The notes under the pieces were generated by a model. That model was not told where the DNA came from, searched no databases, and worked only from the letters and a program-made list of their open reading frames with translations. The position numbers and the translations under genes were made by a program. A stretch of DNA of 64,000 nt from Candidatus Fervidifonticultor secundus (lineage in GTDB: Bacteria > Sysuimicrobiota > Sysuimicrobiia > Sysuimicrobiales > Humicultoraceae): the NCBI GenBank assembly GCA_031459385.1, contig JAVKIP010000007.1, forward strand, positions 89,387 through 153,386, read 5' to 3'. This document shows, piece after piece, positions 4,760-64,000 of the stretch. Numbering within the stretch: the first letter of the stretch is position 1; the number at the start of each line of letters is the position of its first letter.

Positions 4760-6901
4760 GTGGTGGCGGCGCAAAAGGCGCTGGTCGTCGTCGAGTCACC
4801 GACGAAGGCTCGCACCCTGTCCAAGCTGCTGAAGCGGCCCTACGAGGTCAAGGCGTCGATGGGCCACGTGAAGGACTTGCCCCGAAGCCAGTTGGGCGTG
4901 AACGTGGAGGAGAACTTCACCCCCAAGTACATCGTCATCAAGGGCAAGGGCCCCATCATCAAAGACTTGAAGGACGCCGCCAAGAAGGCGTCCGCGGTCT
5001 ACATGGCCACCGATCCTGACCGGGAGGGCGAGGCGATCTCCTGGCACCTGGCCGAACTCCTGGGCCAGGTCAACCCCGAGATCCGGCGCATCGAGTTCCA
5101 CGAGATCACCAAGGAAGCGGTCCAGCGGGCGCTCAGGCACCCGCGGGCCATCGACCAGAACCTGGTGAACGCGCAGCAGGCGCGCCGGGTGCTGGACCGC
5201 CTGGTGGGCTACAAGCTGAGCCCGCTGCTGTGGCGCAAGCTCCGCGGCGGCCTGTCCGCCGGCCGCGTGCAGTCGGTGGCGCTGCGCCTGGTGGTCGACC
5301 GCGAGCGCGAGATCGAGGCGTTCACCCCGCAGGAGTACTGGTCCGTCACCGGCACGTTTCGGACTGCGGGCGGCGAGGAGTTCGAGGCGCGGCTTTTCGC
5401 CCGGGAGGGCGCGCGCTACGGGTCGCCCGCAGACGAGGGCGCGACGGTCATCCGCACCGAGGCCGAGGCGCAGGCCCTGGTGGCGGCGTTGCGCGGCGTA
5501 CAGTACGCGGTCAGCGAGGTCCGGCAGCGCGATCAGCTGCGCCACCCCGCCCCGCCGTTCACCACCAGTACGATGCAGCAGGAGGCCAACCGGCGCTTGG
5601 GCTACTCCGCCGCGCGGACGATGGCGGTCGCCCAGCAGCTCTACGAGGGCCTCGACGTGGGCGACGAGGGCACGGTGGGGCTGATCACGTACATGCGCAC
5701 CGACTCGGTCAGGGTGGCCGCCGCGGCGCAGGCCGAGGCCCGCGACTTCGTCGCCAACGCCTTCGGCGACGCCTACCTGCCGGAGCGGCCGCGCCAGTAC
5801 CGATCGCGGCGCGACGCGCAGGGGGCCCACGAGGCGATCCGGCCCACGAGCATCGCCCGCACGCCCGAGCGCGTCAAACCCTTCCTCCGGTCGGACCAGT
5901 ACCGCCTCTACCGGCTGATCTGGGAGCGCTTCCTCGCCAGCCAGATGGCCGCGGCGGTGCTCGACACGCTGTCGGTGGACGTCACCGGGGGCCCGTTCCT
6001 GTTCCGCGCCACGGGCAGCCGCGTGAAGTTCCCCGGCTACCTGATTCTCTACCGCGAGGCCGCCGACAACGGCGCCCCCGAGCAGGAGAGCTGGCTGCCG
6101 CCGCTCGCGGCGGGTGAGCCGCTGGCGCTGGCGGCCGTGACGCCCGCCCAGCACTTCACGCAGCCGCCGCCCCGCTATACGGAGGCGGCGCTGGTGCGCG
6201 CCCTGGAGGAGAAGGGCATCGGCCGGCCGAGCACCTATGCGCCGACGATCGAGACGATCAAGAAGCGCGGCTACGTCACCAGCCGCGACCGCCGCCTGGT
6301 GCCCACGGACCTGGGGCGCATGGTCACCGACCTGCTGGTCGAACACTTCCCGGAAGTCGTGGACGTCGACTTCACGGCCAGCATGGAGGAGGATCTGGAC
6401 CGCGTGGAAGAAGGGCGGGCGGACTGGCGGCAGATCGTGCGCGACTTCTACGAGCCGTTCGCGCAGACGCTGCAGCGCGCCGAGGCGAAGATCCCCGTGA
6501 CGGAGCTTCCCGAAGTCGCGATCGGAGAGCCCTGCCCCCAGTGCGGGCGACCGCTCGTGCGCAAGCACGGCCGGTTCGGCGAGTTCATCGCCTGCTCGGG
6601 CTTCCCCGCGTGCCGCTACACGCGCCCGGTGGGCCTCGGTGTCGCCTGCCCGCAGTGCGGGAGCGAGCTGGTGGCGCGGCGGACCCGGCGCGGGCGGCCC
6701 TTTTATGGATGCAGCGCGTATCCCGCCTGCGCCTTCACGTCGTGGGACCGCCCCAGCCCTCGCCGCTGTCCGGTCTGCGGCGGCCTGATGGTCGTCAAGA
6801 CCATGCGGCGCGGCGACGAGCTGCGTTGCACGAACGACGCCTGCGGCCACCGCGAGCCGGCGGCTGAGCCCGCGCCGGTGCCGGTGCCGGTCTCCTCCTA
6901 G
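4760..6901 (+). CDS. topA: DNA topoisomerase I with C-terminal zinc ribbons
   Basis: LVVVESPTK, ATDPDREGEAI, SAGRVQS, LITYMRTDS, GIGRPSTY; three C4 zinc fingers. Confidence 0.97.
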   Translation: MVAAQKALVVVESPTKARTLSKLLKRPYEVKASMGHVKDLPRSQLGVNVEENFTPKYIVIKGKGPIIKDLKDAAKKASAVYMATDPDREGEAISWHLAELLGQVNPEIRRIEFHEITKEAVQRALRHPRAIDQNLVNAQQARRVLDRLVGYKLSPLLWRKLRGGLSAGRVQSVALRLVVDREREIEAFTPQEYWSVTGTFRTAGGEEFEARLFAREGARYGSPADEGATVIRTEAEAQALVAALRGVQYAVSEVRQRDQLRHPAPPFTTSTMQQEANRRLGYSAARTMAVAQQLYEGLDVGDEGTVGLITYMRTDSVRVAAAAQAEARDFVANAFGDAYLPERPRQYRSRRDAQGAHEAIRPTSIARTPERVKPFLRSDQYRLYRLIWERFLASQMAAAVLDTLSVDVTGGPFLFRATGSRVKFPGYLILYREAADNGAPEQESWLPPLAAGEPLALAAVTPAQHFTQPPPRYTEAALVRALEEKGIGRPSTYAPTIETIKKRGYVTSRDRRLVPTDLGRMVTDLLVEHFPEVVDVDFTASMEEDLDRVEEGRADWRQIVRDFYEPFAQTLQRAEAKIPVTELPEVAIGEPCPQCGRPLVRKHGRFGEFIACSGFPACRYTRPVGLGVACPQCGSELVARRTRRGRPFYGCSAYPACAFTSWDRPSPRRCPVCGGLMVVKTMRRGDELRCTNDACGHREPAAEPAPVPVPVSS

Positions 6902-55856: not shown

Positions 55857-55933
55857 GGGCCCTTAGCTCAGGTGGTGAGAGCGCACCCCTGATAAGGGTG
55901 AGGTCGGTGGTTCGAGTCCACCAGGGCCCACCA
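55857..55933 (+). tRNA. tRNA-Ile (GAT)
   Basis: Acceptor GGGCCCT/AGGGCCC, anticodon stem CACCC/GGGTG with loop CTGATAA, T arm GGTGG-TTCGAGT-CCACC, encoded CCA. Confidence 0.97.
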
Positions 55934-56010
55934 CCACCAGGGCGTATCATTAGGGCCCACCAGGGCGTACCATTAGCGCCCTCCAGGGGCTCACCATCAG
56001 GGCGCACCAT
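55934..56010 (+). repeat. Degenerate 23-24 bp repeats derived from the tRNA 3' end
   Basis: CAGGGCGTATCATTAGGGCCCAC, CAGGGCGTACCATTAGCGCCCTC, CAGGGGCTCACCATCAGGGCGCAC. Confidence 0.75.
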
Positions 56011-56075
56011 CCCAGGTTCCCGGCGGCTGCGGGCCGCCAGGCATCGCCGGCAGTGTGCGCGTCCCTTGCGCTCAA

Positions 56076-56100
56076 GGGAAGCGATTTCGGCGAAGCGAAT
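56076..56100 (+). promoter_or_regulatory. Sigma-H-like promoter GGGA-N17-GAAT
   Basis: AAGGGA agcgatttcggcgaagc GAATA, 12 nt before the rmlA ATG. Confidence 0.45.
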
Positions 56101-56112
56101 ACACCCGGGCAT

Positions 56113-56293
56113 ATGAAAGGCCTCGTCCTCGCCGGTGGCAGGGGTACGCGGCTGCGGCCGCTGACCTACACTACCGCGAAGCAGCTCATTCCGGTCGCCA
56201 ACGTGCCCATCGTCCACTACGTCATGCGCCACCTGGCGGACGCCGGGATCCGGCAGGTGGGGGTCGTCATCGCCCCGGAGACCGGCGAGCAAG
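56113..56293 (+). pseudogene. rmlA: Glucose-1-phosphate thymidylyltransferase 5' fragment
   Basis: [32 protein letters not shown]...IAPETGEQ; similarity ends after about 60 aa. Confidence 0.85.
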
Positions 56294-57124
56294 TTGGGCA
56301 CTGCCCTGGTGGCGTTCCTGCAAGAAGCGGGCAGCGACGTCGTGCCCCTCGACCACGAGGCCGTGGAGTGCACCGACCCTGCGTCGGTGGACGCTGCCCT
56401 GGCCCGGAGCGCGCCCGATGTGGTGGTGAACTGCGCCGCGTTCGTGCGCGTCGACGAGTGCGAGGACCGGCCTGATGAGGCGTTACGTGTGAACGCGCTG
56501 GGCGCGCTGTACGTGGCCCGCGCCGCCGCCAGCCTGGACGCCCGCTGCGTCTACATCAGCAGCGACTACGTCTTCGACGGGCGCCGTCCGCCGCCGGCGG
56601 CCTACGCTGAGACCGATGCGCCTGCCCCGGTCAACGTGTACGGCGCCTCGAAGCTGGCCGGCGAGCACCTGGTGGCGCAGACATGTCCCGACGCGCTGAT
56701 CGTCCGCACCGCCAGCCTCTTCGGCGGGCGCGGCGCGCGCGGCAAAGGGGGGAACTTCGTCACGGCGATCCTGACGCGGGCGCGCGCCGGGGAGCCGCTG
56801 CGGGTCGTCGACGACGTGTGGATGACGCCCACCTACGCGCCCGACGCGGCGTGGGCGCTGGTCAGGCTGCTGGCCGGCGGCGCGACCGGCATCGTGCACG
56901 TCGCCAATGCCGGTGCGTGCACGTGGTACACTTTTGCCCGCCACGCGCTGGCCCTGGCCGGCGTCGACGCCGCCGTCGAACCCGTGCCGGCCGCGACCTA
57001 CCCCATGCGGGCCAGGCGTCCGACCAACTCGGCGCTGGATACTGCGCGCGCGGCTGGATTGCTGGGCGGCCCACTGCGCACGTGGGAGGACGCGCTGGCC
57101 GAGTACGTGCGCGGGCTGGCCTGA
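56294..57124 (+). pseudogene. rmlD: dTDP-4-dehydrorhamnose reductase lacking its N-terminal GxxGQ start
   Basis: [47 protein letters not shown]; begins out of frame right after the rmlA fragment. Confidence 0.8.
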
Positions 57125-57224: not shown

Positions 57225-58376
57225 ATGCGGATCGCGCTGGCGGATCGCCAGATATACGTCGAGGGCCGGCGGCTGCACGTCAGTCCCAAGTTCTTCCAGC
57301 TGTATTGCCGGCTGGCCCTCGAGCGGGCCCAGGGCCGGTTGGAGTTTCTGGCCTTGCGCGAGATTCACCGTCTACCGGCCTGGAGCCGCGGGAGCCTGGC
57401 CAGTGTTGGCAAGGAAGTCAGCCGGCACGCGCGGCGGATGCGCGCAGCCGGGTGGGACCTGCTGGAGTCGCCGCCGCGGAAGGCCACGCACCTAGTGCGC
57501 CTGCAGCCCAGGGTCGTGCAGGTCGAGTTCGACCGGCCGCTGGCCGAGGTACGTGCCTGGCTCGGGCTCGACCTCCGGGCGGCTGGCGGCGACCCCCACC
57601 AGGCTGAACGCGCGTTCGAACTGGCGGCCGCGCTGGCCGCCGCGCGGGCGGCGCTCGAGCGTGGAGCCCTGCACCAGGCTCGGGCCGCGCTGGCGCGCGC
57701 CGAGCAGGCCGGACCGGACGACGTGCGCGACCGCGTGCTGGTGGCCCTGTGGTGGTCACGGCTGCTCGACCGGGAAGGGCACGACGCCGAGGCCCTGGCG
57801 CGGGCATCCGAAGCCGAGGCGCTGTGCGCCGCCAGCGGCGTCGACCACCTGACGTGCGCGCGAGTGCAGATCTGGATCGGCCATCTGGGCTGGCGCTCCG
57901 GGCGGGCCAACCTGCTGGCCGCAGCCCGCGCGCACTACCGCTGTGCCCAGGACCTCCTGGGCGCAGCGCCGCACTTCGCCGAGCTGGCGGAGATTGCCAT
58001 CGGACTGGGCCACGTAGCACGCCTCGAGCGTGACTGGCCGTCGGCGACTGCGTACCTCCGGGGGGCGCTGCGCTACGCGACCGCCGACGGGTGGGCTTGG
58101 GGCATCCAGGCAGCCGCGTACTACCTGGGCCTGGTGTGCGCCGAGCATGCCGAACATGTGGAAGACCCCGGCTCCCGCTCGCGGCTCTACCGCGAGGCGC
58201 GCGACTGGGCGGAACGGTGCATCCGCCTGGCCGGCGAGGCTGGCGTGGACGCCGCCACAGCCGAGGCGGAAAGCCTGCTCGCCGACCTGCGGGCAAAACT
58301 GGGCCAGCCGGCCAGCCCAGGCCCGGTAGGTGAGCACAACAGGCGCCGGTCGGTCGTACCGAGCGTCAGGCCGTAG
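57225..58376 (+). CDS. Putative regulator: OmpR-like winged-helix N-terminus plus TPR-like repeats
   Basis: RQIYVEGRRLHVSPKFFQLYCRL...VSRHARRM resembles Trans_reg_C; helical repeats (IGLGHVARL, YYLGLV). Confidence 0.6.
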   Translation: MRIALADRQIYVEGRRLHVSPKFFQLYCRLALERAQGRLEFLALREIHRLPAWSRGSLASVGKEVSRHARRMRAAGWDLLESPPRKATHLVRLQPRVVQVEFDRPLAEVRAWLGLDLRAAGGDPHQAERAFELAAALAAARAALERGALHQARAALARAEQAGPDDVRDRVLVALWWSRLLDREGHDAEALARASEAEALCAASGVDHLTCARVQIWIGHLGWRSGRANLLAAARAHYRCAQDLLGAAPHFAELAEIAIGLGHVARLERDWPSATAYLRGALRYATADGWAWGIQAAAYYLGLVCAEHAEHVEDPGSRSRLYREARDWAERCIRLAGEAGVDAATAEAESLLADLRAKLGQPASPGPVGEHNRRRSVVPSVRP

Positions 58377-58594
58377 ACCGGAGGGCGGTACGGCCTGGCA
58401 CAGGGTTCCCCGTAGAAATTCAGAGGAATCTGAGAATCAAAGAATGTGAAATTTTGTGTCAAGTCAAGAGACCCTGGGGAAGGAAAGTTGTGCCACAATA
58501 TTATATAGAGACACACTGCCGGACTGCACAGGCTGGGCTGATAGATCTGGCAGGGCGATCAGCGCGTGGGTCGCGGCTTCGGGACCGTCAAGGG

Positions 58595-59146
58595 ATGGCT
58601 GCGCCGCTTCCTCACATCCCACCGCCTGACGGGGCCATAGTCCAGGATTGCGCGCGGTGGTTTGTCGTGCAGACCAGGCCGCGCGCCGAGGATCGGGCGT
58701 GCGAGTCCCTGCGGCTGCGGGCGGTCGACACGTACCTGCCTCGCCTGCTGGTCTGGCGGCGCCATGGCTCGCGGCGGTGGCAGGCGCTCGAGCCGCTGTT
58801 CCCCGGCTACCTGTTCTGTCGCTTCCCGCCACGTTCCCAGGACATCGCGCGCGTGCAGTGGACGCCCGGCGTACGCCGCCTGCTGGGTGACGACGACGGC
58901 CCCATCCCGGTCGACCCCGAGATCGTCGCCTACCTGCAACGGCGCGAGGCCGGCACCGGGTACATCAGTGCCGGGAGGCCGCTGGCGCCGGGCAACCGCG
59001 TGCGGTTCCGCGGCGGGCCGTTCGCGCTGCTGGAGGGTATCATCGAGCGGCCGGCCGGTCGGGCCGACCGCGTGCGGGTGCTGCTGACGTTGATGAACAC
59101 CGCCGTAGTCGTCGAGGCCGACGCGGCGGATCTGGAACGCTGCTGA
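58595..59146 (+). CDS. NusG paralogue (RfaH/UpxY/LoaP-type transcription antiterminator)
   Basis: WFVVQTRPRAE, YLPRL, EPLFPGYLF, TPGVRRLL, KOW GNRVRFRGGPFALLEG. Confidence 0.92.
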   Translation: MAAPLPHIPPPDGAIVQDCARWFVVQTRPRAEDRACESLRLRAVDTYLPRLLVWRRHGSRRWQALEPLFPGYLFCRFPPRSQDIARVQWTPGVRRLLGDDDGPIPVDPEIVAYLQRREAGTGYISAGRPLAPGNRVRFRGGPFALLEGIIERPAGRADRVRVLLTLMNTAVVVEADAADLERC

Positions 59147-59337
59147 CCTGATCGCGCCCGCGCGGCCGCATGCCGGCAGGTGCGGCGGCGGGCGCCACGG
59201 GCAGCGCAGGCCGCTACGGTGGTGCGGCCGAAGCGTGCGCAACTCCTGGTGGCTTTGCGGTACGTGGCGTGTACCGCACCGGCGGAGCCATGCGCGGCGG
59301 GTCGTGCCCCGCGTGTCCCTCACCGTGGAGGCCCACA

Positions 59338-59565
59338 ATGAGCGCACCGTTGCCCGCGCACGACCGGTCGCCGGCGCACCCCGGGGGCTCCCGCGCCGAG
59401 CCGGCCCTCCGGCCGTGCGAGGCGAAACTGCTGACCTGCATCCGCAACCACTGGGCGCTTGACTTCGGCACACGGGAAGTCCGGCTGGTCATCGAGTACC
59501 AGGACGGCAAGCCGGTGCTCATCCGCGTGACCGGGAACATCGTCAGGGAAGAGAAGCTGCGGTAG
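59338..59565 (+). CDS. Small protein (75 aa), DUF2292/YezD-like
   Basis: GGAGG SD; EAKLLTCIR...LDFG...LVIEYQDGKPVLIRV...EEKL resembles DUF2292. Confidence 0.6.
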   Translation: MSAPLPAHDRSPAHPGGSRAEPALRPCEAKLLTCIRNHWALDFGTREVRLVIEYQDGKPVLIRVTGNIVREEKLR

Positions 59566-59600
59566 CACGCTGAGGGTCGCCACAACCGCATAGCCAGACA

Positions 59601-59705
59601 GACGGGTCCCTGACCCGACGATGCGGGAGGGGGCCGTCCGCGGTGCACACCACGCCCGGGCCAGGATCGGCGCGGTGTGCCTGCGGACGGCCCCTTCCAT
59701 TTTTT
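59601..59705 (+). terminator. Leader terminator with an overlapping alternative (antiterminator) hairpin upstream of wza
   Basis: 18-bp stem 59626-59643/59681-59698 followed by A-T6; alternative hairpin 59601-59638 uses the same 5' arm. Confidence 0.75.
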
Positions 59706-59766
59706 CCGCGCCGCGTGCAGCCGCCAGCGTGCGGCGGCGTGGCGGCGCGTCGAGGAGGTCACCGGC

Positions 59767-61002
59767 ATGACGCGGCATGCGCTGGTTGCTTTGCTGGCCG
59801 TCACTTTGGCGGGCGCAGCGCCCCTGGGCGCGCAGCCCGTGCCGCCGTCACCTGCGGCGCCCGGCACACCGGCGGCGCCGCCCGGCGGGGCGGCCTACGT
59901 GCTTGGCCCCGAGGACGTGCTGGAGATCTCGGTCTGGGGCTACCCCGACCTTACGCGCGTGGTGGCCGTGCTGCCCGACGGGCGCATCAGCGTGCCGCTG
60001 GTGGGCGCGGTGATAGCCGCCGGCCTCACCGTCGAGCAGCTGACCCGCGCGCTGGTGCGCGGCTTTGCCCGCTACATCCGCGACCCGCAGGTCACCGTGA
60101 TCGTCAAGGAGTTCCGCCGCGTACGCGCCGCGGTGCTGGGCCAGGTGCTCAAGCCCGGCACCTACGCGCTGCCACCTGGCGCGCGCCTGCTCGACCTGCT
60201 GTCGGCGGCCGGCGGCGTGACCGAGCTGGCCTCGCTGAGCGATGCCCAGCTGCTGCTGGGGCCAGGCCGGCCGGCCGCGGTCGTAGACCTCGAGCGCGTC
60301 CTGGCCGGCGACCCGGAGGCCAACGTGGCACTGACCGGCGGCGAGACGCTGGTGGTGCGTGAGGACCTGATCAACGTCGTCAACGTTGCAGGCGAGGTGG
60401 CCAGGCCTGGCCGTTACCGGCTCAAGGGCGAGATGCGCGTGCTCGACGTGCTGCTGCTGGCCGGAGGGCTCACCGAGAAGGCGTCGGTCACCGAGGCGCG
60501 CCTGGTGCGCGGCGGCCAGGCGCTGCCGCTGGGGCTCGACGCGCTGCTTCTGCGCCAGGAGATGAGCCGCAACATCCGCCTGGCGCCCGGTGACGCGCTG
60601 ATGGTGCCCGAAGAGACCAACAACAAGATCTACGTCGTCGGCGACGTGAACCACCCCGGCGTCTTCCCCCTCAAGGGCGACGTCACGCTCCTGCAGGCAG
60701 TGGCCCTGGCCGGCGGGCCGGTGCAGCGCGGGCCGGCCACGGCCAGGACGGTCCACATCGTGCGCCGCGGCGGCGTCGAACGCGCGGTCGTGGCCGGCGC
60801 GGGGCGCGAGGTGAAGGTGGAGGCGCTGCCCGGCGGCCGCGCGCTCATCAGCGCCGACCTGCAGGCTCTGCTGCGTCACAGCGCCACCCGCGACATCGCC
60901 GTGCAGCCCGGCGACGTGATCGTGGTGCCCCAGTCAGGCCTGACAGGCCTGCAGGTCGCCCTGAACATCCTGGCCGGGCTGGTGTGGCCGTTCCGGTGGT
61001 AG
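59767..61002 (+). CDS. wza: Polysaccharide export protein (Poly_export + SLBB domains)
   Basis: Signal peptide, YVLGPEDVLEISVWG, PDGRISVPLVG, three SLBB repeats (V.GEV..PG.Y); SD GAGGAGG. Confidence 0.9.
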   Translation: MTRHALVALLAVTLAGAAPLGAQPVPPSPAAPGTPAAPPGGAAYVLGPEDVLEISVWGYPDLTRVVAVLPDGRISVPLVGAVIAAGLTVEQLTRALVRGFARYIRDPQVTVIVKEFRRVRAAVLGQVLKPGTYALPPGARLLDLLSAAGGVTELASLSDAQLLLGPGRPAAVVDLERVLAGDPEANVALTGGETLVVREDLINVVNVAGEVARPGRYRLKGEMRVLDVLLLAGGLTEKASVTEARLVRGGQALPLGLDALLLRQEMSRNIRLAPGDALMVPEETNNKIYVVGDVNHPGVFPLKGDVTLLQAVALAGGPVQRGPATARTVHIVRRGGVERAVVAGAGREVKVEALPGGRALISADLQALLRHSATRDIAVQPGDVIVVPQSGLTGLQVALNILAGLVWPFRW

Positions 61003-61113: not shown

Positions 61114-61488
61114 ATGCCGATCTACGAGTACCGCTGCGCCGACTGCCGGGCGCGCTACACCGTGTTCTTCCTGCCGCCCGAGCAGCCTGAGCCGCGCTGC
61201 CGCCGCTGCGGCAGCACCAACGCCGTGCGCCTGATGTCGCGCTTTGCCACCGTGCGGTCCGACGAGGCCCGCCTCGACGCCCTGGCCGATGACCCCGACC
61301 TCACCCGCTTCGACGAGTCCGACCCGCGCAGCGTGGCGCGGTGGATGAAGCGCCTGGGCCGCGAGATGGGCGACGACCTGGGCCCCGAGTTCGACGAGGC
61401 GGTCGAGAAACTGGAAGCTGGCGGTGGCCTCGACGACGCCACCGGGGGAACGACAGGCGACGACCTGTCGCCTCCCACCGACCTGTAA
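61114..61488 (+). CDS. FmdB-like zinc-ribbon protein with acidic C-terminal domain
   Basis: MPIYEYRCADC...CRRCGS..RLMSRF, DPRSVARWMKRLGREMGDDLGPEF. Confidence 0.85.
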   Translation: MPIYEYRCADCRARYTVFFLPPEQPEPRCRRCGSTNAVRLMSRFATVRSDEARLDALADDPDLTRFDESDPRSVARWMKRLGREMGDDLGPEFDEAVEKLEAGGGLDDATGGTTGDDLSPPTDL

Positions 61489-61562
61489 CCGGTAGCGACC
61501 GAACACACGCGCTGCGGCGGCAACAGCCGCGTGGGCATGCCAGTCACGCCCCTACGCCCGCA

Positions 61563-63038
61563 GTGACTTCGAGCGCGTCACCATCCAGAGCGCTGTCCTC
61601 CAGAGCGCTGCTCTCCTGGGCGCTTGCCGCCTGCTGCGCCGGACTGGTGGCCGGCGCGCTGGCCGCTGTCTGCGCGCAGGGTGCCGCGGCGGCCCCCGGT
61701 CCCAACGCCGTCGTGCCCGCCGACCACTGGGCCTACGGCGCGCTCTACCGCCTGGCCGCCTTCGGGGTGGCGCCGCTGTGGGCGGCCTCGGCGCGGCCGC
61801 TGCCGCGGCTCGAGGTGGCACGCATGGTCGCCGAGGCGCTAGAGCGCGTCGGCGCAACCGACGGGGTGTCGCGCGCCGGCGCTTTGGCCGCCGCATCTGA
61901 CGCCGTGCGCACCGACCTCGACGCCCTGCGCGCCGAGTTCGCCGCCGAGCTGCGCCTGCTGGCCGCCGGGCGCGACGCCCGACCGGATCCGATGGCCGTC
62001 GGGGCCGCCGCCACCGCCCGCGTCGTCAGCGGCGCGCCCCCGCGCTTCCTCCGCCATGACGGCGGCGGAGTCGAGCTCAGCCGCCTCTACCTGGCCGGGC
62101 GCGTGGGCGATGTGGCCGTCCAGGCCGGCCGCGACGCCCTCTGGTGGGGCCCGGGCTCGCGCGGCGCGTTCCTGCTCTCCGACAACGCCGGTCCCCTGGA
62201 CGCGCTCACGCTGACGCTGACCTCGGGCCGCTTCCGTGCGGTGAAGATGGTAGCGCCTCTGGCAGACGGCGCACGCTACCTCTACGGCCTGCGGGTCGAC
62301 TGGCAGGCCCGCGACGACCTGCGCGTGGGCTTCGGCGAGGTCATGGTGGGCACAGGCGGGCTCGAGCCGCTCTACGCGCTGAACGTCGTGCCGGGGGTGG
62401 CCTACGCGATCGCCACCCGCGTGCGCGCACCGGTCCGCAACGACAACTACAACTTCACCGTCGACCTCGACTGGCGGCCGCGGCCGGGCGTGGTGGCTTA
62501 CGGCGAGCTCTACGTCGACGACCTGGTACTCACGGCAGACAACCCCTTCCCGCACCGCCTGGGCGGCACGGTCGGCCTCTACCTGGCCGACCCCTTCGGC
62601 GATGGCCGCACCGGCGTGCGCGTCGAGCACAGCCGCGCCACCAACTGGATCTACGCCACGCCCGACGCGGCCGCTGCCTACATCCGCGCCGGCAGGGCGC
62701 TGGGCCACTGGTGCGCCCCCGACTGCGAACTGTGGTCGGTGACCGTCACCCGCACCTTCTCGCCCGCCGCCGCGGTCCTGGTAGGCTATGACCTCATCCG
62801 CAAGGGGGAAGGCGTGCTGGGCCAGACGTGGACCGACCCCGACGACGCGCGCCGGCGCTACTACCTGTCGGGCGTCATCGAGACCTCTCACGCCCTGCGC
62901 GCGGGGATCACGCGCGCGTGGGGCGAGGCCCGCGCCGCCGCTACGGTGGTGTGGACCGCGTCGACCAACGCCGGGCACGTGGCCGGGGCCACCCGGCAGG
63001 GATGGTTCGTCCTGGTGGAGGCGTCCTATGGATTCTGA
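61563..63038 (+). CDS. wzi: Capsule assembly Wzi-family outer-membrane protein (start uncertain)
   Basis: GRDALWWGPGSRGAFLLSDNA, YGELYVDD, LGHW; SLH-like DHWAYGAL; C-terminal YGF. Confidence 0.75.
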   Translation: MTSSASPSRALSSRALLSWALAACCAGLVAGALAAVCAQGAAAAPGPNAVVPADHWAYGALYRLAAFGVAPLWAASARPLPRLEVARMVAEALERVGATDGVSRAGALAAASDAVRTDLDALRAEFAAELRLLAAGRDARPDPMAVGAAATARVVSGAPPRFLRHDGGGVELSRLYLAGRVGDVAVQAGRDALWWGPGSRGAFLLSDNAGPLDALTLTLTSGRFRAVKMVAPLADGARYLYGLRVDWQARDDLRVGFGEVMVGTGGLEPLYALNVVPGVAYAIATRVRAPVRNDNYNFTVDLDWRPRPGVVAYGELYVDDLVLTADNPFPHRLGGTVGLYLADPFGDGRTGVRVEHSRATNWIYATPDAAAAYIRAGRALGHWCAPDCELWSVTVTRTFSPAAAVLVGYDLIRKGEGVLGQTWTDPDDARRRYYLSGVIETSHALRAGITRAWGEARAAATVVWTASTNAGHVAGATRQGWFVLVEASYGF

Positions 63039-64000
63039 ACCGCGCACTCCCGCAGAGGAGCCCCGCGCGCCGGATCGGACATGGGCCGGCTCGACCGCGC
63101 CGCCGTCCGGGCGCGAGTCCGACGAGCCCGGGCTGCGCGACTACCTGGCAGTGCTGCGCCGCCGCTGGTACCTGCCGGCGGTCACCACGGTCATCGCCCT
63201 GGCCGTGGCCCTGGGGTTCAGCCTAGGCGCCGCGCCAGTCTACCGCGGCCAGGCCACCGTGGTGGTCGACCGCAGCGGGGCGTCGTTCGCCATGACCGCC
63301 GACCTCACCGGTATCAGCCAGCAGGCCTTCGTCGACACGCTGGCCGAACTGGTGAAGAGTCGCGCCGTGGCCGCGCAGGCCCTCGAGCGCCTGGGCACCC
63401 CTGAGGACGAGCGGCCCGCCCTGCTGGCAGCCCTCCAGCGCGGCCTGAAGGTGCGCCGCGTGCGCAACGCCGACCTGATCGTCATCGAGGCCGAAGGACC
63501 CACGCCGGCCGCCGCCGCCTACTACACCAACGCCGTGGCCGAGGCGCTGCTGGCCTGGCACGTCGACTCGCGCCGCCAGCAGGCCTCCGCCGGCCGCCGC
63601 TTCATCGAAGAGCAGGTGACGGCCGTGGGCAACGAGCTGCGCGCCGCCGAAGACGCCCTGGCCCGCTACAAGGTCGAAGGCGGGCAGGTCTCGCTCTCAG
63701 AGCAGAGCACCCTGGCCGTGACCAAGCTGGCCGAGTTCGAGGCGCAGCGCCGCGCCGCCGCCGCTGAGCGCCGGGGGGTCGAGGCCAGCCTGCGCGAGGC
63801 CCGCGCCGCCCTGGCCCGCCAGGCACCCACGGTGCCCGCATCGTTCATCGAGGGCGAAGACCCTGTCGTGGCCCAGATCCGCACCGACCTGGCCAAACTG
63901 GAACTGGAGCTGGTCGGCCTGCAGCGCCAGTTCACCGACCGTCATCCCCAGGTGCTGGCCACGAAGGCCCGCATCGAGGAAGCCAAGGCGCGCCTGCGCC
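63028..64000 (+). CDS. wzc: Polysaccharide co-polymerase Wzc/GumC, 5' part (runs off window)
   Basis: LRDYLAVLRRRW, PVYRGQATV, FIEEQV, FTDRHPQV. Confidence 0.88.
   Translation, partial: MDSEPRTPAEEPRAPDRTWAGSTAPPSGRESDEPGLRDYLAVLRRRWYLPAVTTVIALAVALGFSLGAAPVYRGQATVVVDRSGASFAMTADLTGISQQAFVDTLAELVKSRAVAAQALERLGTPEDERPALLAALQRGLKVRRVRNADLIVIEAEGPTPAAAAYYTNAVAEALLAWHVDSRRQQASAGRRFIEEQVTAVGNELRAAEDALARYKVEGGQVSLSEQSTLAVTKLAEFEAQRRAAAAERRGVEASLREARAALARQAPTVPASFIEGEDPVVAQIRTDLAKLELELVGLQRQFTDRHPQVLATKARIEEAKARLR

Follow-up and report, generated by a model that had tools for sequence, protein, structure and literature searches.

The window (the whole stretch analysed, 64,000 nucleotides of Candidatus Fervidifonticultor secundus DNA) contains on its plus strand the gene of a 183-residue RfaH-like NusG paralog (58595..59146; Pfam NusG, E 2.6e-17), the start codon of which was placed at 58595 from a purine-rich stretch upstream. 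It is followed by a short hairpin (59257..59277), read from the sequence and matched by similar inverted repeats seen by eye in many relatives, and directly thereafter by the ops-like 12-mer GGCGGAGCCATG (59281..59292), a putative pause and loading site of the paralog. Beyond these come a small open reading frame (ORF) encoding 75 residues (59338..59565, with GGAGG at 59327-59331 and a conserved core at 59410-59562), an AACYGMATA box, here AACCGCATA (59584..59592), and, 3' of the box, a candidate antiterminator hairpin (59605..59635) and a terminator-like fold (59626..59705). The first gene past this gate is a wza-like polysaccharide export gene (59767..61002; Pfam Poly_export and SLBB), after which lie a wzi-like capsule assembly gene (61341..63038; Pfam Caps_assemb_Wzi, E 1.5e-25), whose true start may be further in, and a wzz/wzc-like chain length gene (63025..63999; Pfam Wzz, E 8.9e-7) that extends beyond the window. 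As the wza ribosome-binding site GAGGAGGT (59752-59759) lies outside both folds, control by these folds would be at transcription.

A consensus promoter scan of the window found no promoter. A 383-aa ORF (57225-58376) that matches no family over cut-off looks like a helical-repeat regulator and is a possible input to the switch proposed below, and the AT-rich stretch that follows it (58430-58510) may contain the promoter of the RfaH-like gene. Farther upstream, positions 55857-57124 hold a tRNA and then, from 56053 and identified by eye, the short beginning of a nucleotidyltransferase-like gene, which seems to give way abruptly to an RmlD-like gene; the stretch may be an island edge that has been rearranged. 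An FmdB-like zinc-ribbon gene (PF09723; 61114-61488) travels with the cluster, and in the relatives L005, L189, L195, and L196 an FmdB-like gene stands between the small ORF and the hairpin.

Among five NusG-family models the best match of the NusG paralog was RfaH (TIGR01955), with a score of 91 bits that does not reach the cut-off of 144.5; UpxY gave 59 bits, LoaP 52, and NusG 40, and the protein stays under every NCBIfam cut-off. RfaH-like paralogs were found in 43 of 94 genomes of the phylum, a collection in which many genomes are incomplete, and the weakest few may be ordinary NusG. Loci were fetched for 30 of the 52 matches, and 29 of these had downstream DNA. Of these 29 genes, 27 are followed within 400 nt by GGCGGAGC, in one case inside a coding region, and none by the same sequence on the opposite strand. 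Position 11 of the 12-mer is T in 23 of 27 and position 12 is G or A in 24 of 27. We take GGCGGAGCCATG to resemble the letters of E. coli ops, with differences at the middle positions. The 12-mer GGCGGAGCYRTR is found phylum-wide (loci L321-L350), in most cases preceded by a short hairpin, and its copy in the window matches no Rfam family. It is likely to be a recruitment site for an uncharacterised clade of NusG paralogs.

The hairpin and the overlapping predicted terminator

RNAfold on the isolated hairpin, pair counts, and a covariance model gave at 59605-59635 the structure GGUCCCU-GA-CCCG-(6 nt loop)-CGGG-A-GGGGGCC, which has a GA/A internal loop and a U-G closing pair. The preliminary description of this DNA, which had quoted the letters of the region correctly, proposed a longer hairpin with a UGA/A internal loop. 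That hairpin is present and excludes the terminator, but there is a G-G mismatch within its 10-bp lower stem, the outer GACGG/CCGUC pairing is not conserved, and the loop had been read one base off. Folding energy cannot separate the alternatives, as three registers of the window sequence lie within about 1 kcal/mol (-22.4, -22.9, and -23.5 kcal/mol). RNAfold returned the GA/A register for the isolated hairpins of close relatives; over 18 of these the competing registers are similar (97% versus 92% of cells paired), and covariation within the close family showed no clear excess over shuffles (17 and 23 of 500).

The register was assigned by comparison of 42 loop-anchored hairpins from several lineages. 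The closing pair is U-G in 33 and C-G in 9 of them, that is, where the U is replaced it is replaced by C and the opposite base is always G, whereas the UGA/A register would make the second pair G-G in 22 of the 42. We therefore read the loop as GA/A, with a Y-G pair closing it. The loop bases are GA in 41 of the 42 hairpins and AA in one, which is the copy at L198 1093-1125. Stem pairs are swapped between lineages in a compensatory manner (C-G/U-A and C-G/G-C/A-U). It is these swaps, and not the 42 of 42 pairings, that carry weight, since selection of the hairpins required pairing at several positions and the pair counts are thus partly forced. As alignment A5 put the 3' strand wrongly between lineages, the cross-lineage counts were taken from a script anchored on the loop. 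A likeness of CCCUGAC/GAGGG to a tetraloop-receptor motif and to kink-turns was considered and dropped; the conserved register differs and tandem G-A pairs are absent.

The terminator-like fold consists of a long stem, of which the 5' arm includes the 3' strand of the hairpin, followed by A-U6. As had been described from the letters, all 18 positions of 59626-59643 pair with 59681-59698 (two G-U pairs among them), the stem is extended by 7 bp between GCACACC (59645-59651) and GGTGTGC (59674-59680), and ATTTTTT stands at 59699-59705. The two folds are incompatible because they share that strand, and the overlap recurs in relatives. Folding of positions 59560-59720 gives -92.9 kcal/mol (z = -4.76), a value equalled by 0 of 200 shuffles. 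At full length the terminator forms at -78.3 kcal/mol when folding is free versus -62.1 kcal/mol with the hairpin forced, a gap of about 16 kcal/mol. In stepwise equilibrium folding the upper stem of the hairpin is preferred at most lengths to 59683 and the terminator from 59693, and at 59663-59668 a rival short hairpin holds about half of the ensemble. As the terminator wins at full length and the hairpin's upper stem at shorter lengths, the default is likely a stop near 59705.

The reading of the region as an attenuator held up in comparison. Each of the 22 complete close copies has the hairpin's 3' strand within the base of its terminator, with the distal stem freely replaced; a terminator likewise overlaps 24 of the 25 hairpins behind DUF2292 genes in Bacilli described below, and stem changes are compensatory. 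At least 5 U per 8-nt window follow the stem in 17 of the 22 close copies, the U tract being weak in 5. In the genome of the window a relaxed hairpin pattern alone gave 38 matches versus 34 in the reversed genome and is thus common by chance; the hairpin with an overlapping terminator gave 1 versus 0. A simple terminator scan, limited to loops of 3-8 bases and at most 20 pairs, missed the element. The one RNA run searched for expression gave short partial matches alone, from other organisms. As also first described, the hairpin matches no riboswitch, since Rfam gives nothing at gathering level on it; across the whole window tRNA was the only Rfam match at gathering score, and permissive Rfam scans of the element region and 26 related loci placed no family on the hairpin. 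By sequence comparison, then, the element is a conserved attenuator-type RNA absent from Rfam.

The same data bear on a reading that we think very unlikely, namely that the terminator is a fixed, leaky step-down and the hairpin a binding or stability element for the message of the small gene itself. The 16 kcal/mol lead of the terminator fold would suit a fixed terminator and the weak U tracts of 5 of 22 copies would leak, but such an arrangement does not explain why the part of the terminator stem shared with the 3' strand of the hairpin is retained and the remainder freely replaced, nor why copies recur before separate downstream genes.

Co-occurrence of the hairpin and the small ORF

The small ORF was found in 10 of 61 relatives, with one match spurious, and the hairpin stands behind the ORF in all nine true genomes. 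When the search was made over the 94 genomes of the phylum, an ORF profile gave 9 strong matches (E <= 3e-28) and one weak match, and the hairpin covariance model gave the same 9 strongly (E <= 4.5e-8) plus two weak matches, in G036 and G034. ORF matches in G015 and G036, which are weak and in other frames, were set aside, as was the weak covariance-model match in G036, which is apparently in a coding region. The eight RfaH-like loci with the ORF all have the hairpin, seven within 1.5 kb and the eighth beyond. The other 21 RfaH-like loci with downstream DNA gave no ORF match and one borderline hairpin (L346), and most of them still have the ops-like site; the hairpin pattern run over the RfaH-like loci also gave one chance match inside an ORF. 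The hairpin is also present in 12 of 14 metagenome loci selected for the ORF; the other two stop at a contig edge. Hence the ORF and hairpin occur in the same 9 of 94 genomes and the paralog in 43, and the hairpin goes with the small ORF whereas the ops-like site goes with the paralog. The nine genomes that carry the ORF and the hairpin belong to one family, which has the closest RfaH-like genes, and probably go back to a single acquisition.

These counts bear on the possibility that the NusG paralog itself overrides the terminator in the manner of LoaP or UpxY, loading at the hairpin or at the ops-like site with the small ORF a passenger or cofactor. We regard this as unlikely, notwithstanding that the paralog adjoins the hairpin unit in 8 of 9 genomes and in 13 of 14 metagenome loci (the remaining metagenome locus is cut off) and that, in passing no NCBIfam cut-off, it need not behave as does E. 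coli RfaH. LoaP lowers hairpin-dependent termination, according to part of PMC9630627. However, most RfaH-like loci of the phylum keep the ops-like site and lack both hairpin and ORF, and at the Bacilli and phage loci inspected the hairpin follows a DUF2292 gene and precedes sulfur or phage genes.

Some genomes carry more than one copy. Among close relatives there are two ORF-hairpin units in G024 and two box-hairpin copies in L189, where two sets of box, hairpin, and terminator (5241-6242) flank an apparent PIN-type toxin-antitoxin pair on the opposite strand, identified by eye. At L149 (G096:C7:103745) a further gene is preceded by a duplicate of the box, hairpin, and terminator along with the final codons of the small ORF. 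This duplicate lies 2.8 kb from the full ORF and would be a natural in-trans target.

Probable kinship with DUF2292 proteins and their hairpins

The small ORF has no direct match in Pfam or NCBIfam. A search among 50% representatives gave 21 relatives at E <= 0.001, and three of these, which are long proteins, are left out of the small-ORF alignment. PF10055, the DUF2292 model (22-bit cut-off), finds neither the window protein nor any protein of its own genome; it matched 0 of 10 window-family members in one set and 1 of 24 in another, at E 0.051. Direct comparison of the window-family profile with that of Bacilli DUF2292 proteins was weak (probability 23-30%). A link is provided by phage proteins: L233, L235, and L224 pass the PF10055 cut-off at 41, 43, and 29 bits, and L233 and L235 also match the window-family profile (E 2e-5 and 3.5e-5, in a small database). 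The window-family profile matches that of nine bridge proteins, some of them picked by eye, with a probability of 95%, and in a search with the bridge profile the window ORF came first among 45,432 frames, yet at E 2.2. The bridge argument is partly circular, as some bridges were chosen by likeness. The predicted model of the window protein is a helix plus a beta-hairpin (H2-14, E20-31, E34-48; pLDDT 87) and that of a Bacilli DUF2292 member is H2-8, E14-21, E24-32 (pLDDT 90), this being a common and simple topology. A fold search of 48,161 chains with the 51-residue model, a short query for such a comparison, gave no match to a known RNA-binding protein (best Z 3.5; CsrA, CAT, HutP, and ANTAR folds were considered), and a PDB sequence search with the window protein returned repeat-protein noise only. 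The nearest named Atlas cluster was DUF2292 at 0.76, which is a lead only. From these comparisons the small ORF appears to encode a remote relative of DUF2292/YezD/OscA, linked through phage proteins. The literature we searched gave no molecular function for that family.

PF10055 is present in 74 of 201 Bacilli genomes, and we examined 31 genes, the 30 best loci plus one from Kurthia. With a relaxed pattern a hairpin with the same loop was found within 200 nt after 25 of the 31 genes (14 with the strict pattern); in the controls it was found for 0 of 31 genes when the opposite strand was searched and for 2 of 31 when the DNA upstream was. Six genes have no nearby hairpin. By inspection of translations the genes that follow are of cysH, sbp, ssu, and siroheme types, and a SAM riboswitch lies upstream of the small gene in 8 of 13 Bacilli loci scanned. 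The window hairpin shares with the DUF2292-linked hairpins of Bacilli and phages the C-Y-GA / A-G-G loop, paired flanks, and overlapping terminator. Covariance model R1, built from 18 near-identical close copies, gave one true match (E 0.29) on 32 Bacilli loci. As R1 misses the Bacilli copies, the link to them rests on loop, position, overlap, and protein homology. The box-plus-hairpin pattern is too strict for Bacilli, where it was found in 3 of 201 genomes.

A pattern-only scan of all genomes gave 120 matches, mostly by chance, of which four have an overlapping terminator. One of the four (L054) is probably spurious, two lie behind a similar small ORF (Terriglobia or kin; L041), and one is a Kurthia cysH leader behind promoter-like sequence with no ORF in cis. 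Elsewhere in the Kurthia genome a second, compensated hairpin copy stands behind a true DUF2292 gene, the product of which scores under the cut-off of the OscA model. A viral pattern scan gave 120 matches, nine with a terminator. Upstream of the nine phage loci inspected are three PF10055 proteins over cut-off, one sub-threshold match, and three look-alikes without a DUF2292 match; at one of these loci a portal gene follows the hairpin. In the titles and the starts of abstracts searched the hairpin is undescribed, and subscription papers or the supplement of PMC11109978 may list the motif. The terms sought are absent from the supplement of PMC6429828, and yezD from that of PMC10221552. The same searches gave no paper on a DUF2292-type hairpin in a polysaccharide or RfaH setting.

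That the hairpin instead binds another host factor or a small ligand, acting as a riboswitch-like or Nus-factor-dependent element with the ORF linked by shared regulation only, seems quite unlikely. In its favour is the AACYGMATA box, which lies at most 45 nt upstream of the hairpin in 17 of 23 close copies and, in 3 of its 7 other occurrences in the genome of the window, directly before c-di-GMP-I, SAM-I, and cobalamin aptamers (G000:C10:15421, C23:58957, and C34:107810), as it also does at L375 in G002 (1 of 7 there). The box may conceivably be half of an rRNA boxA. The same reading draws on stand-alone copies without an ORF in cis (the Kurthia cysH leader and the second copy in L189). However, the box is absent before all 25 Bacilli hairpins behind DUF2292 genes and is unenriched by count in G002 (8 versus 6 in the control), and the checked genomes with stand-alone copies also carry the small gene. 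Moreover, an RNA of about 31 nt with a single 2x1 loop would be a small aptamer, and the downstream genes have no obvious metabolite in common.

It is highly improbable that control is by ribosome-coupled attenuation, in which translation of the small ORF and not its product would set the fold. The stop codon lies about 30 nt or less from the hairpin in many copies, and in two Bacilli loci the UGA of the hairpin itself is the stop codon of the small gene. Such coupling fits poorly with a stop-to-hairpin distance of 0 to more than 1 kb (about 20 nt to more than 1 kb in close relatives), with the genes that intervene in L005, L189, L195, and L196, or with copies that have no ORF in cis. The protein is also strongly conserved with a predicted folded core, unlike a leader peptide.

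The proposed switch and its closest known systems

Sequence and comparison establish that the two folds exclude each other, that both are conserved, and that the hairpin and small ORF co-occur. We consider it fairly probable that the hairpin is an antiterminator bound at its GA/A loop by the small DUF2292-like protein encoded upstream, which would allow read-through into the export genes. If transcription stops near 59705 by default, read-through requires that the hairpin be held in place, and for this role the small protein is suggested by the unpaired conserved GA/A loop, by the co-occurrence, and by the lack of relation among the target genes. Targets as varied as sulfur, phage, and polysaccharide export genes fit a dedicated protein better than they fit one metabolite. 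A gap of 16 kcal/mol is large for a small protein to overcome at equilibrium, and hence control would have to be kinetic.

In the proposed sequence of events a single transcript would run from the RfaH-like gene through the ops-like site into the small ORF. The hairpin would form first and be displaced by the terminator as 59684-59698 emerge, giving the default stop near 59705. Small protein accumulating from the short transcripts would then clamp the hairpin, and all that remained of the terminator would be a shortened stem, separated from the U tract by about 13 nt. Thereafter the RfaH-like protein, having loaded at the ops-like site, would carry transcription through the long operon. RfaH is reported, in part of PMC9630627, not to reduce hairpin-dependent termination, and a second factor would thus be useful here. 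The outcome would be a local two-key or delay switch.

More broadly, and as a tentative reading to which we give somewhat less than even weight, DUF2292/YezD/OscA proteins and their GA/A hairpins may form a portable two-part antitermination cassette of less than 300 bases that is placed by bacteria and phages before operons as unrelated as those for sulfur assimilation, phage late functions, and polysaccharide export, and which here would serve as a two-key or delay capsule switch behind the RfaH-like protein and its ops-like site. The diverged window protein and diverged hairpin may constitute an orthogonal pair. If this is true, a widespread protein family of unknown function, represented in Bacillus subtilis and by OscA in Pseudomonas, would be assigned a molecular role, and an RNA family missing from Rfam would be defined. 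It could also explain termination control in sulfur-operon leaders, for which we know of no identified factor. RfaH-like systems reportedly do not override hairpin terminators, and one could in this way gain an extra gate; with about 50 residues in the protein and 31 nt in its target, the pair would also make a very small synthetic transcription switch.

Several known systems resemble parts of this arrangement. The gene for a BglG-type regulator is found near or inside the unit under its control, as the small ORF would be here. In BglG/SacY/LicT regulation the RAT stem-loop partly overlaps an intrinsic terminator and is stabilised by the protein (from part of PMC4347634), and both there and in the window a short RNA antiterminator hairpin overlaps a terminator. 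The proteins differ, those of BglG/SacY having CAT and PRD domains whereas the small ORF has no Pfam match and is predicted to have a 51-aa helix plus beta-hairpin core, to be used with one GA/A loop. The targets there are sugar uptake genes and here polysaccharide genes, with sulfur and phage genes in kin, and no signal input is known here. By analogy the window would share the logic of BglG/SacY-RAT with unrelated parts.

In conAn of plasmid pLS20 and in EAR, a protein plus RNA or an RNA, respectively, stands near the start of long operons as in the window, the EAR lying in an exopolysaccharide operon; conAn and EAR act processively on distant terminators, whereas the window RNA of about 31 nt overlaps one terminator and has no Rfam match (the known systems as given in part of PMC8955417). 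RfaH with ops/JUMPStart (from part of PMC9630627) likewise has a NusG paralog before a polysaccharide operon and a conserved 12-nt leader site. The window differs in that its paralog stays at 91 bits below the RfaH cut-off of 144.5, there is no Rfam JUMPstart match, and an intrinsic terminator gate and a small ORF lie between the site and wza.

A further likeness is to the DUF2292/YezD/OscA family (PF10055, NF033785), whose members share with the window protein their size, the helix-(F/Y)G-strand-(Q)DG-strand-EK pattern, and the predicted topology, and whose genes, like the window ORF, stand directly before a GA/A hairpin-terminator. The window protein differs in having insertions and in missing the Pfam cut-off, and the window hairpin in having a longer lower stem and a 6-nt loop. 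The setting there is one of sulfur genes, OscA being reported (in part of PMC3596284) as co-transcribed with a sulfate-binding protein gene, whereas here it is one of polysaccharide genes. On these sequence features the window element appears to be a diverged member of the DUF2292-linked hairpin family set inside an RfaH-like/ops leader.
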